NCBI RefSeq assembly: GCF_003018235.1 | Contig: NZ_CP027437.1 | Reading direction: 5' to 3' (one strand) | Source of the DNA: Escherichia coli | Lineage (GTDB): Bacteria > Pseudomonadota > Gammaproteobacteria > Enterobacterales > Enterobacteriaceae | Length of the DNA: 64,000 bases | Part shown: piece after piece, positions 53,520 through 60,273 of the stretch | Layout of the letters: the number at the start of each line of letters is the position of its first letter | Position numbering within the stretch: the first letter of the stretch is position 1 | The notes under the pieces: generated by a model | The model's database searches: none | The model's input: the letters and a program-made list of their open reading frames with translations, nothing else | What the model was told of the DNA's origin: nothing | Made by a program: the position numbers and the translations under genes

Positions 53520-54323
53520 ATGGAAAACAGTTTTAAAGCGGCGCTGAAAGCAGGCCGCCCGCAGATCGGATTATGGCTGGGGCTAAGTAGCAGCTACAGC
53601 GCAGAGTTACTAGCCGGAGCAGGATTCGACTGGTTATTGATCGACGGTGAGCACGCGCCGAATAACGTGCAAACCGTGCTCACCCAACTACAGGCGATTG
53701 CGCCCTACCCCAGCCAGCCGGTAGTACGTCCGTCGTGGAACGATCCAGTGCAAATCAAACAACTGCTGGACGTCGGCACACAAACCTTACTGGTGCCGAT
53801 GGTACAAAACGCCGACGAAGCCCGTGAAGCGGTACGCGCCACCCGTTATCCCCCCGCCGGTATTCGCGGTGTGGGCAGTGCGCTGGCTCGCGCCTCGCGC
53901 TGGAATCGCATTCCTGATTACCTGCAAAAAGCCAACGATCAAATGTGCGTGCTGGTGCAGATCGAAACGCGTGAGGCAATGAAGAAATTACCGCAGATTC
54001 TGGACGTGGAAGGGGTCGACGGCGTGTTTATCGGCCCGGCGGATCTGAGCGCCGATATGGGTTATGCCGGTAATCCACAGCACCCGGAAGTACAGGTCGC
54101 CATTGAGCAGGCGATCGTGCAGATCCGCGAAGCGGGCAAAGCGCCGGGGATCCTGATCGCCAATGAGCAACTGGCAAAACGCTATCTGGAACTGGGCGCG
54201 CTGTTTGTCGCCGTCGGCGTTGACACCACCCTGCTCGCCCGCGCCGCCGAAGCGTTGGCAGCACGGTTTGGTAATAGTTCTTCTATTTCGATGGCGAAGC
54301 AAAACAACAACTCTGTCTACTAA
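53520..54323 (+). CDS. hpaI: 4-hydroxy-2-oxo-heptane-1,7-dioate aldolase (HpcH/HpaI family)
   Basis: 267 aa from ATG 53520. Confidence 0.85.
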
Positions 54324-54344
54324 ACGTACGATGTGGAGCGCATC

Positions 54345-55700
54345 ATGACGACCTCTACCCTGCAATATAAAGATAATAAAACTGTTGAAATTGAACATCG
54401 TGTCATTAATAAATTATTTCGTCGCCTAATCATTTTTCTTTTTATTCTGTTTGTTTTTTCGTTTCTTGATCGCATCAATATAGGATTTGCCGGACTGACA
54501 ATGGGCAAGGATCTTGGCCTGACGTCCACAATGTTTGGCCTCGCCGCGACACTCTTTTATGTCACGTACGTCATGTGCGGGATCCCCAGTAATATGATGT
54601 TAGCGAAAATTGGCGCTCGTCGATGGATCGCTGGGATCATGGTGGTCTGGGGAGTTGCTTCCACCTGCACAATGTTTGCAACAAGCCCCGAAACACTCTA
54701 TCTACTGCGTATGCTGGTTGGTATTGCTGAGGCGGGTTTTTTACCTGGTATTTTGGTTTATCTGACCTGGTGGTTCCCGGCATATCATCGGGCCAGAGCC
54801 AATGCCTTATTTATGATAGCGATGCCAGTCACTATGATGCTGGGATCGATCCTTTCAGGCTACATTCTGGCCTTGGATGGACTGTGGAATCTAAAAGGCT
54901 GGCAATGGCTCTTTTTGCTGGAAGGTCTGCCATCGGTCATTCTTGGTGTCGTCACCTGGTTTTATCTCAACGACACACCAGACCAGGCGACCTGGCTTGA
55001 TGAAAACGAAAAACAGGCTTTAAAAACGATGATTCTCCGTGAACAAGAGAGTGCATTTGCCCATGCATCTGTTCCACGCTCAACCTTACGTGAAGTCCTG
55101 ACCCCAGCCATCATGCTATATACACTTGCTTATTTTTGCCTGACCAATACTCTGAGTGCGATTAATATCTGGACGCCGCAAATCCTACAGAGTTTCAATA
55201 CTGGCAGTAGCAACATCATGATTGGTTTGCTGGCGGCCATCCCCCAATTCTGCACAATTTTTGGCATGATCTGGTGGAGTCGTCGTTCCGACCGTCTTAA
55301 AGAACGCAAAAAGCATACGATTCTTCCCTACCTGTTTGCCGCTGCCGGATGGTTACTCGCTTCTGCGACTGATCACAGCCTCATTCAACTGAGCGGCATC
55401 ATTATGGCCTCAATGGGATCATTTACCGCAATGGCTATCTTTTGGACGACACCGGATCAAGTAATAAGCTTGCAATCGCGTGCCGTTGCGATGGCTGTCA
55501 TCAATGCTGTCGGTAATGTAGGTTCAGCAGTCAGTCCATTACTTATCGGTATTTTGAAAGATGCAACCGGCAGTTTTAGCTCAGGTTTGTGGTTTGTAGC
55601 AGGATTACTGGTACTGGGCGCGTTAGTCATGACCCGAATTCCTATGGGGAGTCGGGAACACTCTCTTTCATCTGAACTTATCGCACCAAAACCGCAATAA
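54345..55700 (+). CDS. hpaX: 4-hydroxyphenylacetate permease (MFS)
   Basis: about 451 aa. Confidence 0.8.
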   Translation: MTTSTLQYKDNKTVEIEHRVINKLFRRLIIFLFILFVFSFLDRINIGFAGLTMGKDLGLTSTMFGLAATLFYVTYVMCGIPSNMMLAKIGARRWIAGIMVVWGVASTCTMFATSPETLYLLRMLVGIAEAGFLPGILVYLTWWFPAYHRARANALFMIAMPVTMMLGSILSGYILALDGLWNLKGWQWLFLLEGLPSVILGVVTWFYLNDTPDQATWLDENEKQALKTMILREQESAFAHASVPRSTLREVLTPAIMLYTLAYFCLTNTLSAINIWTPQILQSFNTGSSNIMIGLLAAIPQFCTIFGMIWWSRRSDRLKERKKHTILPYLFAAAGWLLASATDHSLIQLSGIIMASMGSFTAMAIFWTTPDQVISLQSRAVAMAVINAVGNVGSAVSPLLIGILKDATGSFSSGLWFVAGLLVLGALVMTRIPMGSREHSLSSELIAPKPQ

Positions 55701-55709
55701 GGAGTCATG

Positions 55710-56600
55710 ATGTCCAGTGAAGCTATCTTTGAACATGGTTATGAAAATATTGATTTGGTCCGGGAATATGATGCCCGCTACGCTGGTGAAGATGTGCATT
55801 ATGAAACATTTGCCAGGTTAGCGAATTTCTTTGGACGCGATATGCGCCCTCACTGGCACGATAGATATTTTCAACTCCATTATCTGGTCACTGGACGCAT
55901 TACTTTACAGCTGGATGAGCACTTCTATTCTGTGCGCGCACCGCTTTTTGTACTAACACCACCATCGGTGCCACATACTTTCTTTACTGAGCCTGATAGC
56001 GACGGGCATGTTCTGACCGTACGTCAGGAGTTAATTTGGCCCCTGGTAGAAAAGCTCTGGCCTGGTAGTGGAGATGCCGCAATGCTACAAGGTATCTGTC
56101 TATCGCTGGAGGGAATGGAACATACACTGGCGGCATTAAATCATTATTGGCCGATAATATCCCTGGAGTTTCAACAAAATAAGCCAGGACGGGAAATTCT
56201 ATTGCAATCACTGGCGCAAAGTATTTTTACAATCCTACTGCGTGAAGCACCACCAAATGATATTTCAACATGCAGCGTGCGCGGCGAGATGTGTTTATTC
56301 CAGAAGTTTAATCGGCTGATTGACGAAAATTATCGCCAACATTTAATGGTCCCTGAATATGCAGCAATGCTCGGTATGAGTGAATCACGGCTTACCGAGC
56401 TGTGCCGACGTTTTGCCAATCAATCGCCGAAGAGATTGATTTTCGAACGAGTGAGCCGGGAAGCCAGACGGCTTCTGCTCTATAGCGAGCAAAGCATCAA
56501 CCAGATTGCCCTTGATCTTGGCTACAAAGATCCCGCCTATTTCGCCCGTTTTTTCAACCGAATGATGGGTTGCTCACCAACACAATTCCGTGGTCGCTGA
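55710..56600 (+). CDS. hpaA: AraC-family activator of hpaBC
   Basis: C-terminal AraC HTH; start 55707 or 55710. Confidence 0.8.
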   Translation: MSSEAIFEHGYENIDLVREYDARYAGEDVHYETFARLANFFGRDMRPHWHDRYFQLHYLVTGRITLQLDEHFYSVRAPLFVLTPPSVPHTFFTEPDSDGHVLTVRQELIWPLVEKLWPGSGDAAMLQGICLSLEGMEHTLAALNHYWPIISLEFQQNKPGREILLQSLAQSIFTILLREAPPNDISTCSVRGEMCLFQKFNRLIDENYRQHLMVPEYAAMLGMSESRLTELCRRFANQSPKRLIFERVSREARRLLLYSEQSINQIALDLGYKDPAYFARFFNRMMGCSPTQFRGR

Positions 56601-56626
56601 CCATTTATCAACCTGAGAGACTCGAC

Positions 56627-57565
56627 ATGAAAATATCTTTACGCTCACTATTTGTGGCGTGCCTGATTGCGCCAGTGGCATTCACCTACGCCTCCGAACC
56701 GCAAGAAATGAAAATTGTACTACTTGGAACGAAAGGTGGCCCTTCTTTATTAAAAGCTGACCGTTTGCCGATGGCAACGGCACTTATTATTGGCAATAAA
56801 ACATGGTTAATTGATGCTGGTTACGGGGCCAGCTTACAACTGGTAAAAAATAATATTCCACTGCGCCAGATTGATAATATTTTACTCACCCATTTACACA
56901 GTGATCATATTCTGGACTATCCCTCAGTCTTAATGAATGCATGGGCTAGCGGTCTGCAGGACAAAACTATTCATGTGTTCGGTCCGCCAGGCACCCGAGC
57001 CATGACCGCTGCCAGTTGGCAGGTCTTCGATCGGGACATCACACTGCGTATGGAAGAAGAAGGAAAACCCGATCCTCGCAAGCTCGTTACAGCTCAAGAT
57101 GTTGGTGAAGGCGTAGTTTATAAAGATGATACCGTGACCGTGACTGCATTAAAGGTTCCTCATTCTCCTTTCCCTGACGGTGAGGCTTTTGCTTATCGCT
57201 TCGACACACAAGGCAAGCGAATTGTCTTCTCAGGAGATACCTCGTACTTTCCCCCACTGGCAACTTTCTCAGAAGGCGCTGATATACTTGTGCATGAGGC
57301 CGTACATGAGCCCTCCGTCGCTAAGCTGGCAGACAGTATTGGCAATGGTAAAACACTGGCAAAAGCCATTGCTTCTCACCATACGACTATTGAGGATGTA
57401 GGCAAAATTGCCAATGAAGCAAAAGTGAAAAAACTCATCCTTAGCCACCTGGTACCAATCACCGTTCCGGATGAAACATGGAAGCAAGAAGCACAGAAAA
57501 ACTATTCAGGCCCTATCGTCGTTGGTCATGAAAATATGACGATTACCATTCCATTCGCCCCATAA
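56627..57565 (+). CDS. secreted MBL-fold metallo-hydrolase (HxHxDH)
   Basis: signal peptide MKISLRSLFVACLIAPVAFTYA then LTHLHSDHILD motif; inserted between hpaA and hpaB. Confidence 0.7.
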   Translation: MKISLRSLFVACLIAPVAFTYASEPQEMKIVLLGTKGGPSLLKADRLPMATALIIGNKTWLIDAGYGASLQLVKNNIPLRQIDNILLTHLHSDHILDYPSVLMNAWASGLQDKTIHVFGPPGTRAMTAASWQVFDRDITLRMEEEGKPDPRKLVTAQDVGEGVVYKDDTVTVTALKVPHSPFPDGEAFAYRFDTQGKRIVFSGDTSYFPPLATFSEGADILVHEAVHEPSVAKLADSIGNGKTLAKAIASHHTTIEDVGKIANEAKVKKLILSHLVPITVPDETWKQEAQKNYSGPIVVGHENMTITIPFAP

Positions 57566-57791
57566 AAAATTCCGTCCCCGTTAGCCCTTGTTAGCGGGGA
57601 ATATTATGATTTGCCTTACTGCAAGTTGATCACGATCGCAGTTTACTATTTAACTCCACCTTGCTGGCGAAAAGTACCAACGTTCGCCTGAAACGTCTCT
57701 TCCCGACAACCGCGTTCAACGCTTCAATTAAATAACAAAAACAACACACAAAATTAACAATCGTATTCCGATTAATACTGTAGAGGTCGAC

Positions 57792-59354
57792 ATGAAACCA
57801 GAAGATTTCCGCGCCAGTACCCAACGTCCGTTCACCGGGGAAGAGTATCTGAAAAGCCTGCAGGATGGTCGCGAGATCTATATCTATGGCGAGCGAGTGA
57901 AAGACGTCACTACTCATCCGGCATTTCGTAATGCGGCAGCGTCTGTTGCCCAACTGTACGACGCGCTGCACAAACCGGAGATGCAGGACTCTCTGTGTTG
58001 GAACACCGACACCGGCAGCGGCGGCTATACCCATAAATTCTTCCGCGTGGCGAAAAGTGCCGACGACCTGCGCCAGCAACGCGACGCCATCGCTGAGTGG
58101 TCACGCCTGAGCTATGGCTGGATGGGCCGCACCCCAGACTACAAAGCCGCTTTCGGTTGCGCACTGGGCGCGAATCCGGGCTTTTACGGTCAGTTCGAGC
58201 AGAACGCCCGTAACTGGTACACCCGTATTCAGGAAACTGGCCTCTACTTTAACCACGCGATTGTTAACCCACCGATTGATCGTCATTTGCCGACCGATAA
58301 AGTGAAAGACGTTTACATCAAGCTGGAAAAAGAGACTGACGCCGGGATTATCGTCAGCGGTGCGAAAGTGGTTGCCACCAACTCGGCGCTGACTCACTAC
58401 AACATGATTGGCTTCGGCTCGGCACAAGTGATGGGCGAAAACCCGGACTTCGCACTGATGTTCGTTGCGCCAATGGATGCCGATGGCGTGAAATTAATCT
58501 CCCGCGCCTCTTATGAAATGGTGGCGGGTGCTACCGGCTCGCCGTACGACTACCCGCTCTCCAGCCGCTTTGATGAGAACGATGCGATTCTGGTGATGGA
58601 TAACGTGCTGATCCCATGGGAAAACGTACTGATCTACCGCGATTTCGATCGCTGCCGTCGCTGGACAATGGAAGGTGGTTTTGCCCGTATGTATCCGCTG
58701 CAAGCCTGTGTGCGCCTGGCAGTGAAATTAGACTTCATTACGGCACTGCTGAAAAAATCACTCGAATGTACCGGCACCCTGGAGTTCCGTGGTGTGCAGG
58801 CCGATCTCGGTGAAGTGGTGGCGTGGCGCAACACCTTCTGGGCATTGAGTGACTCGATGTGTTCAGAAGCGACGCCGTGGGTCAACGGGGCTTATTTACC
58901 GGATCATGCCGCACTGCAAACCTATCGCGTACTGGCACCAATGGCCTACGCGAAGATCAAAAACATTATCGAACGCAACGTTACCAGTGGCCTGATCTAT
59001 CTTCCTTCCAGTGCCCGTGACCTGAACAATCCGCAGATCGACCAGTATCTGGCGAAGTATGTGCGCGGTTCGAATGGTATGGATCACGTCCAGCGCATCA
59101 AGATCCTCAAACTGATGTGGGATGCTATTGGCAGCGAATTTGGTGGTCGTCACGAACTGTATGAAATCAACTACTCCGGTAGCCAGGATGAGATTCGCCT
59201 GCAGTGTCTGCGCCAGGCACAAAGCTCCGGCAATATGGACAAGATGATGGCGATGGTTGATCGCTGCCTGTCGGAATACGACCAGAACGGCTGGACTGTG
59301 CCGCACCTGCACAACAACGACGATATCAACATGCTGGATAAGCTGCTGAAATAA
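57792..59354 (+). CDS. hpaB: 4-hydroxyphenylacetate 3-monooxygenase, oxygenase component
   Basis: 520 aa. Confidence 0.9.
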   Translation: MKPEDFRASTQRPFTGEEYLKSLQDGREIYIYGERVKDVTTHPAFRNAAASVAQLYDALHKPEMQDSLCWNTDTGSGGYTHKFFRVAKSADDLRQQRDAIAEWSRLSYGWMGRTPDYKAAFGCALGANPGFYGQFEQNARNWYTRIQETGLYFNHAIVNPPIDRHLPTDKVKDVYIKLEKETDAGIIVSGAKVVATNSALTHYNMIGFGSAQVMGENPDFALMFVAPMDADGVKLISRASYEMVAGATGSPYDYPLSSRFDENDAILVMDNVLIPWENVLIYRDFDRCRRWTMEGGFARMYPLQACVRLAVKLDFITALLKKSLECTGTLEFRGVQADLGEVVAWRNTFWALSDSMCSEATPWVNGAYLPDHAALQTYRVLAPMAYAKIKNIIERNVTSGLIYLPSSARDLNNPQIDQYLAKYVRGSNGMDHVQRIKILKLMWDAIGSEFGGRHELYEINYSGSQDEIRLQCLRQAQSSGNMDKMMAMVDRCLSEYDQNGWTVPHLHNNDDINMLDKLLK

Positions 59355-59884: not shown

Positions 59885-60273
59885 GCTCCAGACCCTTCAC
59901 GTATTCGTCGAAGGGGCATTTTTATTGTGATCTCAATCACATATCCACCCGATGAATAATTCTTGCCCAACCGCTCACCGCCATTCCTGACCGCTTACAT
60001 CCCTAAAATAACCACTCAGTTATTTACCTTACTTTACGCGCGCGTAACTCTGGCAACATCACTGCAGGATAGCGGTCAATTTACCTCCTCAAACGCAACG
60101 CAAACCTAGAACGGCTTCGGCCTATGATTAACAAATTACTCTATGGATTTTGGTTTGCAGGAAGGCAGCAAGTGAGTGAACCAGGAGCTTACAACAGTAA
60201 GTGACAGGGGTGAACGAACCCAGCTGCGGCACCTGTAAGCCAAAAGACGACGAGTAAAATGCCAGGTTTTACT

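Follow-up and report, generated by a model that had tools for sequence, protein, structure and literature searches.

The cluster for 4-hydroxyphenylacetate (4-HPA) catabolism in an Escherichia coli genome carries, between hpaA and hpaB, a gene for a hydrolase of the metallo-beta-lactamase (MBL) fold with a predicted export signal. The gene occupies positions 56627-57565 (+ strand; 312 codons and a stop codon) of a 64,000-nucleotide stretch of contig NZ_CP027437.1 (assembly GCF_003018235.1), referred to here as the window. Homologues recur beside genes for the breakdown of hydroxyphenylacetate, tyramine and tyrosine, and we consider it highly probable that the product is a genuine exported hydrolase, maintained by selection and linked in function to these pathways. 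The best overall explanation, to which we give about even chances, is that it would act as a periplasmic hydrolase freeing 4-hydroxyphenyl compounds from O-ester conjugates, a chemistry that we infer. The gene and its immediate signals are:

56627-57565, + strand: MBL hydrolase coding sequence, 312 amino acids (aa), RefSeq 'MBL fold metallo-hydrolase', WP_001672356.1
56627-56692, + strand: signal peptide of 22 aa, predicted cleavage TYA/SE, from sequence features
56891-56908, + strand: HLHSDH metal-binding motif, aa 89-94, read from the sequence
56615-56619, + strand: Shine-Dalgarno-like GAGAG, 7 nt 5' of the ATG, read from the sequence
57575-57600, + strand: GC-rich hairpin 3' of the stop codon, 11-bp stem and 4-nt loop, from folding

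An earlier note on this DNA had described a secreted MBL-fold protein of 313 aa with a Sec signal peptide and an HxHxDH motif. Leader and motif are both present in the protein sequence, and the gene is where it was placed, at a length of 312 aa plus the stop codon. Predicted secretion and fold were likewise borne out, by the signal peptide and the Pfam matches respectively. Lactamase_B_2 (72.2 bits against a cut-off of 27, E 5.6e-20) and Lactamase_B (45.8 bits against 22.7, E 8.6e-12) both scored above their gathering thresholds; together with HxHxDH and the downstream His/Asp ligands this places the protein in the MBL superfamily. The N-terminus (MKISLRSLFVACLIAPVAFTYA/SEP) has a positively charged n-region, a hydrophobic core of 13 residues and the cleavage motif T-Y-A. 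A hydrophobic N-terminal leader is found in every aligned homologue, with RR (Tat-like) motifs in some alphaproteobacterial ones. A lipoprotein reading based on Cys12 was rejected, since Cys12 follows too short a hydrophobic stretch and stands in an atypical box, FVAC. When 31 homologues were aligned, H89, H91, H94, H179, D204, H252 and H274 were invariant and D93 was kept in 30, the exception being a Salmonella sequence (P0007, HLHSNH). Comparison with Salmonella and metagenomic relatives indicated strong purifying selection (pN 0.10-0.16 against a saturated pS of 0.77-0.80); an exact dN/dS was unobtainable because synonymous sites are saturated. Judged from its sequence, the open reading frame is an intact, functional gene for a hydrolase with two metal ions, predicted to leave the cytoplasm by the Sec route.

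The link to aromatic catabolism is well supported by gene neighborhoods, in which the MBL family appears as a recurrent accessory of hydroxyphenylacetate, tyramine and tyrosine catabolic clusters. Salmonella enterica (subspecies enterica, arizonae and diarizonae) has an orthologue of 76-77% amino acid identity directly after hpaA, where it ends the series hpaG-E-D-F-H-I-X-A. Beyond Salmonella, homologues of 40-58% identity lie beside such catabolic genes in ~11 proteobacterial lineages. Identities to the window protein and local gene arrangements were:

Alcanivorax/Alloalcanivorax (4 loci), 57-58%: hpaG..HI-MBL
Pseudomonas guariconensis, 56%: HpaR-like repressor, then OprD-MBL
Pseudomonas putida, 53%: hpaG..HI-MBL
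Stutzerimonas stutzeri KOS6, 52%: TRAP-MFS-MBL, directly followed by oxygenase and reductase of an Acinetobacter-type p-hydroxyphenylacetate 3-hydroxylase
Cobetia and Salinisphaera, 47-48%: phenol-2-monooxygenase-like gene with hpa genes
Acinetobacter sp. ANC 3832, 47%: MBL-GMC oxidoreductase-aldehyde dehydrogenase-LuxR-copper primary-amine oxidase (1361 bits against 1278)
Acinetobacter sp. P8-3-8, 46%: Acinetobacter-type hydroxylase, OprD porin, HpaR, MFS transporter
Bradyrhizobium/Tardiphaga (~38 loci), 43-47%: MBL gene closely preceded, on the same strand, by a TauE/SafE (TauE/TSUP) permease gene; at most loci the opposite flank carries a flavin amine oxidase
Roseomonas-like (13 loci), 42-44%: homogentisate 1,2-dioxygenase-MBL-FAD aromatic hydroxylase; in locus L058 the genes are 15-17 bp apart
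Achromobacter, 40%: MBL-4-hydroxyphenylpyruvate dioxygenase (HPPD)

Both hydroxylase components of S. stutzeri KOS6 exceeded their equivalog cut-offs (748 bits against 650 and 548 against 340), and hpaR and hpaA of this strain lie ~4.5 kb upstream of TRAP-MFS-MBL, with other genes between. Adjacency to hydroxyphenylacetate, tyramine or homogentisate genes was seen in 11 of the 16 closest species-level loci and again in the Roseomonas-like, Bradyrhizobium, Achromobacter and Rhizobiales groups, as a plain tally of loci. Because gene orders differ and the adjoining enzymes are often not homologues of one another (HpaBC versus the Acinetobacter-type hydroxylase, copper versus flavin amine oxidases), the pattern points to a functional link and not to the shared ancestry of one operon. 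The same synteny across many lineages speaks against an unrelated insertion, one of two readings that the earlier note had offered. Its other proposal, a lactonase or esterase acting on aromatic substrates, holds in part: an aromatic role fits the conserved synteny, and nothing was found in favor of a lactonase, the nearest characterized relatives being an S4 arylsulfatase, RNase Z and PNGM-1.

Several observations accompany these neighborhoods. At the ~38 Bradyrhizobium/Tardiphaga loci (L019-L082, e.g. L019:9166-9939) the TauE/SafE-family permease gene, for sulfite/sulfonate anions, lies 50-190 bp 5' of the MBL gene, and this adjacency is a possible sulfur link for the family. P. putida has a second, unrelated MBL-fold gene of 358 aa (L085:19681-20757) that adjoins an MFS transporter and an OprD porin gene; it is ~9 kb away from the hpa-linked gene and next to a Rieske dioxygenase cluster. 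The gene called 'hpaY' in P. putida U is a second hpaR and does not correspond to the present gene.

In the mechanism that we propose, the MBL gene would be transcribed with hpaX-hpaA up to the hairpin and its product exported to the periplasm. There it would act on 4-hydroxyphenyl compounds esterified at the phenolic oxygen and hydrolyze that ester, and the freed phenol would be imported by HpaX and hydroxylated by HpaBC. The likeliest substrates would be aryl sulfates (for instance 4-HPA-, tyramine- or tyrosine-O-sulfate), with aryl phosphates as the alternative. The side chains handled by the neighboring pathways are acetate (Hpa, homogentisate), ethylamine (amine oxidases) and pyruvate/alanine (HPPD); as these pathways share the para-hydroxyphenyl ring, a bond at the phenolic oxygen would fit all contexts. 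The MBL gene often adjoins the first hydroxylase and transporters or porins. Un-masking before uptake is the most economical role, because a periplasmic enzyme could not reach cytoplasmic ring-cleavage intermediates, and we regard it as roughly an even bet that the hydrolase acts upstream, releasing substrate. Aryl sulfates are the first candidates and aryl phosphates the second because the nearest characterized chemistry is aryl sulfate hydrolysis; more weakly, sulfates are also favored by the sulfur-anion permease beside the Bradyrhizobium homologues. That the bond cleaved is an aryl sulfate is put forward tentatively, as the less probable part of the proposal.

The simplest reading of the upstream region is that the gene would be co-transcribed with hpaA, since only 26 nt, including the ribosome-binding site, separate the hpaA stop codon from the ATG, and a promoter scan of 55931-57900 gave no promoter-like site on the + strand. 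Downstream, a terminator-like hairpin had been reported at 57585-57605. The hairpin is real (66-nt fold of -20.3 kcal/mol, z -3.75 against shuffles), but it lies at 57575-57600, has no U-tract and drew no call in a consensus terminator scan; it may be a terminator or an mRNA-stabilizing stem. Rfam gave no match in 54000-58000.

The relatives of the protein bear on its chemistry. The best sequence match in the PDB is the arylsulfatase 8GYG (phmmer E 1.5e-25, full-length alignment), followed by Bacillus subtilis RNase Z and PNGM-1. With an AlphaFold (AF2) model of pLDDT 88.9, Foldseek also placed 8GYG first (TM-score 0.82-0.84), then PNGM-1, RNase Z, YhfI and ELAC1. 8GYG is a 328-aa protein of Paraglaciecola sp. 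T6c with a leader of its own; listed under Pseudoalteromonas atlantica/Paraglaciecola sp. T6c, it stands among the S4 arylsulfatases with AtsA of Pseudoalteromonas carrageenovora. PMC5066984 describes this SulfAtlas family as a small clade adjacent to RNase Z whose only known activity is on an artificial aryl sulfate, and uses at least 30% identity to characterized AtsA as a criterion for it. The window protein has HxHxDH within the ElaC/AtsA clade and 8GYG as its closest PDB sequence and structure. Its identity to 8GYG is 28.7% over phmmer columns, 24-25% in Foldseek and 24% in a MAFFT alignment. Taken with the values for other S4-like proteins given below, this lies at or below that 30% level.

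Both groups share an export signal, a length of ~310-330 aa and all metal ligands (HxHxDH, H179, D204, H252, H274). The window protein and 8GYG also share helical inserts in place of the RNase Z flexible arm, together with the helices before the HH motif; two helical inserts common to them are absent from RNase Z. The groups differ in that the MBL family reads LGTKGGPS and HLHSDH where S4 has LGTMGGP and HLHFDH. Its lid motif, D137-I-x-x-R141-x-x-x-E145-G-K/R-P-D, is replaced by G-H-Y-G-V-P-G-Q in S4, and two S4 insertions of 6-7 residues are missing from it. A 4-hydroxyphenyl catabolic gene context is unreported for S4. By these comparisons the protein belongs to a sister family in the S4/ElaC branch and is not filed as an S4 member.

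A periplasmic esterase, amidase or lactonase that acts on side-chain conjugates (4-hydroxyphenylacetic acid esters or amides) and releases 4-HPA is essentially the idea of the earlier note, and can be likened to the scavenging role proposed for the periplasmic penicillin G acylase of E. coli W. In that role the acylase would free phenylacetate-type acids from their conjugates so that they can be catabolized. Its gene, pac, is located in the immigration-control region of E. coli W, a few kb from the hpa cluster (PMC3032704). The analogy is one of function only: both concern a periplasmic hydrolase encoded near an hpa cluster, but the acylase has an unrelated (Ntn hydrolase) fold, cleaves side-chain amides and esters, and its gene lies outside the hpa operons. 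A periplasmic location and a position in the hpa cluster would suit such an enzyme equally well, and the MBL fold includes esterases and lactonases. We nevertheless consider it unlikely, as it would yield the acid only and leave the adjacency to amine oxidase, HPPD and homogentisate genes unexplained. No lactonase or esterase family appeared among the sequence or structure matches, and the known reactions of the ElaC/AtsA branch are hydrolyses of phosphodiesters and sulfate esters.

We judge equally improbable a periplasmic enzyme of the ElaC/ZiPD type (phosphodiesterase, nuclease or aryl-phosphatase), for which the hpa link would be indirect (e.g. phosphate scavenging) or a matter of hitch-hiking. 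Fold and motif order are indeed those of RNase Z/ElaC/ZiPD proteins (B. subtilis RNase Z, E 8e-20, TM-score 0.72-0.73). Models of RNase Z and of cyclic-nucleotide phosphodiesterase give E-values of 1e-23 to 1e-37, and Foldseek also returned structures of RNase Z, YhfI, the PhnP family and Apyc1. The NCBIfam scores, however, are about half the RNase Z cut-offs or less (127.1 against 252 for NF000801, 125.4 against 292.95 for TIGR02651, 49.8 against 563.7 for TIGR02649) and are far below threshold for the cyclic-nucleotide phosphodiesterase model (84 against 400); GntH is likewise sub-threshold (130 against 333 bits). The tRNA-binding flexible-arm segment of RNase Z is a different helical lid in the window protein, and RNase Z is cytoplasmic, whereas the window protein is predicted to be exported. 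An exported protein cannot process tRNA precursors, and an RNase Z function was rejected on the predicted export signal and the sub-cut-off scores. With that function excluded, the 'ribonuclease BN/Z' labels on homologues read as over-annotations and are almost certainly wrong. Hitch-hiking, for its part, fails to explain independent associations with varied gene orders in ~11 lineages. Release of 4-hydroxyphenyl compounds from O-ester conjugates remains our preferred role for the protein.

How the gene came to E. coli is recorded in its surroundings. The earlier note had regarded it as a single-gene insertion. Comparison with a canonical E. coli cluster (L001) indicates that a 3.4-kb low-GC segment has replaced the canonical hpaX-hpaA stretch, and that the MBL gene came inside this replacement, which also swapped hpaX and hpaA, and did not insert alone. 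The parts of the region are:

54273-57720, no strand: mosaic segment of hpaI tail, variant hpaX, variant hpaA, MBL gene and upstream hpaBC control region, from BLAST and GC content
54345-55700, + strand: hpaX, divergent 4-HPA permease allele, alternative GTG start at 54333; RefSeq coordinates from L002
55710-56600, + strand: hpaA, divergent allele of the AraC-type hpaBC activator, NCBIfam HpaA equivalog
56603-57622, + strand: MBL module (ribosome-binding site, coding sequence, hairpin); an MBL-less donor relative has ~58 bp of unrelated spacer instead
57623-57791, + strand: hpaBC control region, 57623-57720 donor-derived and ~57721-57791 identical to canonical E. coli
57792-59884, + strand: hpaB and hpaC (4-HPA 3-monooxygenase), canonical alleles, 99-100% amino acid identity to L001; RefSeq

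Identity to L001 in BLAST is 97.8% through position 54272 and again from 57669; between these points only hpaX and hpaA align, at ~68% DNA identity. The segment has a GC content of 0.42-0.50, its flanks one of 0.52-0.60. The left junction, abrupt in the alignment, falls inside the last codons, at the 3' end of hpaI. The right one lies in the hpaBC promoter region, where 57669-57720 is homologous at ~65% identity and the sequences are identical from ~57721. HpaX (861 bits against a cut-off of 615) and HpaA (491 against 275) are clear NCBIfam equivalogs. The cassette HpaX shares 70% of its residues with canonical E. coli and 71% with Salmonella, and the cassette HpaA 59% with each; as both proteins are about equally distant from their Salmonella and their canonical E. 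coli counterparts, the cassette did not come from Salmonella. A search for repeats in 53900-58000, as a check for insertion scars, gave only short chance-level matches, and neither repeats at the borders nor an insertion sequence or integrase was found. We read the arrival as a homologous replacement, in which a donor enterobacterium with hpaI-hpaX-hpaA-MBL-hpaBC gave the 3.4 kb by crossovers in the hpaI end and the hpaBC promoter region.

The window otherwise resembles the canonical cluster of E. coli W, B and C, with all eleven hpa genes (hpaR, hpaGEDFHI, hpaX, hpaA, hpaBC) in the same order and at the same chromosomal site, next to btsT-yjiX-yjiA. It differs by a twelfth gene between hpaA and hpaB, by foreign hpaX and hpaA alleles, by an altered HpaI C-terminus and by loss of the REP-like palindromes between hpaI and hpaX. 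These REP/BIME-like palindromes take up ~170 bp in canonical E. coli (L001:4774-4983). Within the cassette, hpaX starts 10-22 bp after hpaI, and the HpaI C-terminus is different and 5 residues longer (window 54273-54345). A 16-nt inverted repeat, 94% complementary, at 54343-54358 and 57780-57795 (the hpaX start and the hpaB ribosome-binding site and start) falls near the segment ends, probably by chance.

The donor lineage could be approached through metagenomic relatives. One contig (L087), with an MBL protein 85% identical to that of the window, carries the HpaA C-terminus, the MBL gene, a hairpin and the same conserved hpaBC control blocks. This shared layout suggests that the order hpaA-MBL-hpaBC is native to the donor lineage. 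Two further sequences, L090 and L091 (HpaA 84% identical), are without the MBL gene; L091 has 262 bp between hpaA and hpaB, and its homology to the window resumes at 57623. The comparison of L091 with the window marks the MBL gene as a discrete ~1.0-kb presence/absence module (56603-57622) in the donor group, and this becomes visible only when MBL-bearing and MBL-less donor-lineage relatives are compared. The nearest named HpaA relatives, Pluralibacter gergoviae (80%) and Entomohabitans (77%), both lack the MBL gene. The closest MBL relatives (85% and 78%) are on short metagenomic contigs, and a scan of one genome per species gave nothing nearer to the MBL protein than Salmonella enterica, at 77%.

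Three blocks upstream of hpaB, GAAAAGTACC, GTCTCTTC.CG and GCTTCAATT.AA.AACAAAAACAA, are common to the window, the canonical cluster and L087/L091 (compared spans: window 57623-57760, L087:1080-1209, L091:1172-1317, L001:7388-7480), and are candidates for the HpaA operator or the promoter. A foreign HpaA that shares 59% of its residues with the canonical one is here combined with a hybrid hpaBC control region. The hairpin that L087 carries at the place of the window hairpin is a different one.

Among 5426 complete E. coli genomes the MBL gene is present in 48 (about 1%). All copies are chromosomal, full length and at least 99.4% identical. The hpa region occurs in ~2070 of these genomes, and ~2020 of them, ~98%, have the canonical arrangement hpaGEDFHI-hpaX-hpaA-hpaBC without the gene; in L001 a 250-bp spacer and no gene separates hpaA from hpaB. 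The order given in the earlier note, with hpaBC directly after hpaA, is correct for canonical E. coli, and the gene is extra to that cluster. That it is standard in reference clusters is true of Salmonella enterica, where it is a regular member after hpaA, and not of E. coli. The gene could be a neutral passenger, decaying or non-functional in E. coli, that was brought in by the hpaX-hpaA replacement, and its rarity among hpa-positive E. coli, the truncated copies in Shigella flexneri and several Salmonella entries, and the D93N change in one Salmonella sequence would agree with this. We think it improbable, somewhat more so than an esterase or a phosphodiesterase, as 48 of 48 complete-genome copies are intact, the exact protein of the window is found on 754 contigs of a large protein collection, and purifying selection has been strong across saturated synonymous divergence. 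A PNGM-1-like enzyme of beta-lactam resistance or detoxification is very improbable despite the PNGM-1 structures among the matches (TM-score 0.78-0.79, phmmer E 4e-16), as identity to this subclass B3-like protein is ~21% and ranks below that to 8GYG, the context is chromosomal and catabolic and neither resistance-linked nor mobile, no plasmid copies were found in complete E. coli genomes, and soil alphaproteobacteria commonly carry members of the family next to amine oxidase genes.

The truncated versions of S. flexneri (e.g. AAN45792.2 and AAP19570.1) are 255 aa long and fall in the same 90% protein cluster, from which this species appears to carry a decayed gene. Partial matches to window 56400-57800, at 90-99% identity but covering less than 80% of the interval, came from 16 E. 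coli records, in which the hpaA-hpaB spacer could have recombined in other ways. Where an E. coli genome has no hpa genes, its match to the window begins only at ~59908-59972, just upstream of btsT, which marks the right edge of the whole hpa island.

The Salmonella cluster shares with the window an orthologue with a signal peptide straight after hpaA. It differs in the place of hpaBC, which lies downstream of hpaR at the opposite end; the gene is therefore last in its operon and not 5' of hpaB. The Salmonella copy at L003:7216-8154 (GCA_002507705.1) has HLHSNH (Asp to Asn, D93N) and HEAGH; the arizonae and diarizonae copies retain HLHSDH and HEAVH. Many Salmonella database entries are truncated, among them a 237-aa Typhi entry. 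The metal-motif change and the truncations hint at a loss of function in some Salmonella serovars. The Salmonella gene is presumably STM1109 of LT2, 'putative periplasmic protein'; a literature search for 'STM1109' returned only an entry in a proteomics list.

Several points weigh against the proposed release of 4-hydroxyphenyl compounds from O-ester conjugates. Identity to eight other S4-like proteins is only 23-30%, and the two groups form separate alignment blocks. The family-invariant K36 (in LGTKGGPS) and the lid residues D137, R141 and E145 are without an arylsulfatase counterpart, and because invariant residues and insertions differ, the substrate, and even the bond type, may differ from those of arylsulfatases. 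No aromatic-catabolism neighbor is seen at five of the 16 closest loci, those of P. sagittaria, P. linyingensis, Providencia, Castellaniella and Photobacterium. Pluralibacter, Entomohabitans, L090/L091 and ~98% of hpa-positive E. coli do without the gene, which would therefore be dispensable for growth on 4-HPA itself. Co-transcription and export are both predictions from the DNA, and a literature search found no biochemical data or descriptive paper for any member of the family.

The MBL gene as such is already known, being generically annotated in public genomes and ordinary in Salmonella. New are the association of the whole family with 4-hydroxyphenyl catabolism, which we did not find described in the literature, and an hpa cluster with an added hydrolase of predicted periplasmic location. 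Searches on the catabolon, on hpaA/hpaX with beta-lactamase and on homoprotocatechuate with a periplasmic MBL protein nowhere returned a description of the gene or family. For E. coli population genomics, the window provides a clean case of allelic replacement within a catabolic island.

Hpa is a textbook aromatic catabolic route and a tool for biosensors and for the biotechnological HpaBC hydroxylase, and its gene set is treated as complete. A recurrent exported hydrolase would imply that many bacteria meet 4-hydroxyphenyl compounds in conjugated form and un-mask them in the periplasm. 4-HPA-, tyramine-, dopamine- and tyrosine-O-esters are abundant host and plant metabolites, and the freed phenols would enter the Hpa, homogentisate and amine-oxidase routes. 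Periplasmic de-sulfation or de-phosphorylation of such esters as an unrecognized first step in the catabolism of tyrosine-derived phenolics is a speculative proposal, rather doubtful at present. If the substrates are aryl sulfates, the family would give bacteria of the gut and the soil a link to the large reservoirs of tyramine, dopamine, tyrosine and phenolic acids that exist in sulfated form. These would then be the first physiological substrates for MBL-type (S4-like) sulfatases and a new entry point to the 'dihydroxyphenylacetate catabolon'.

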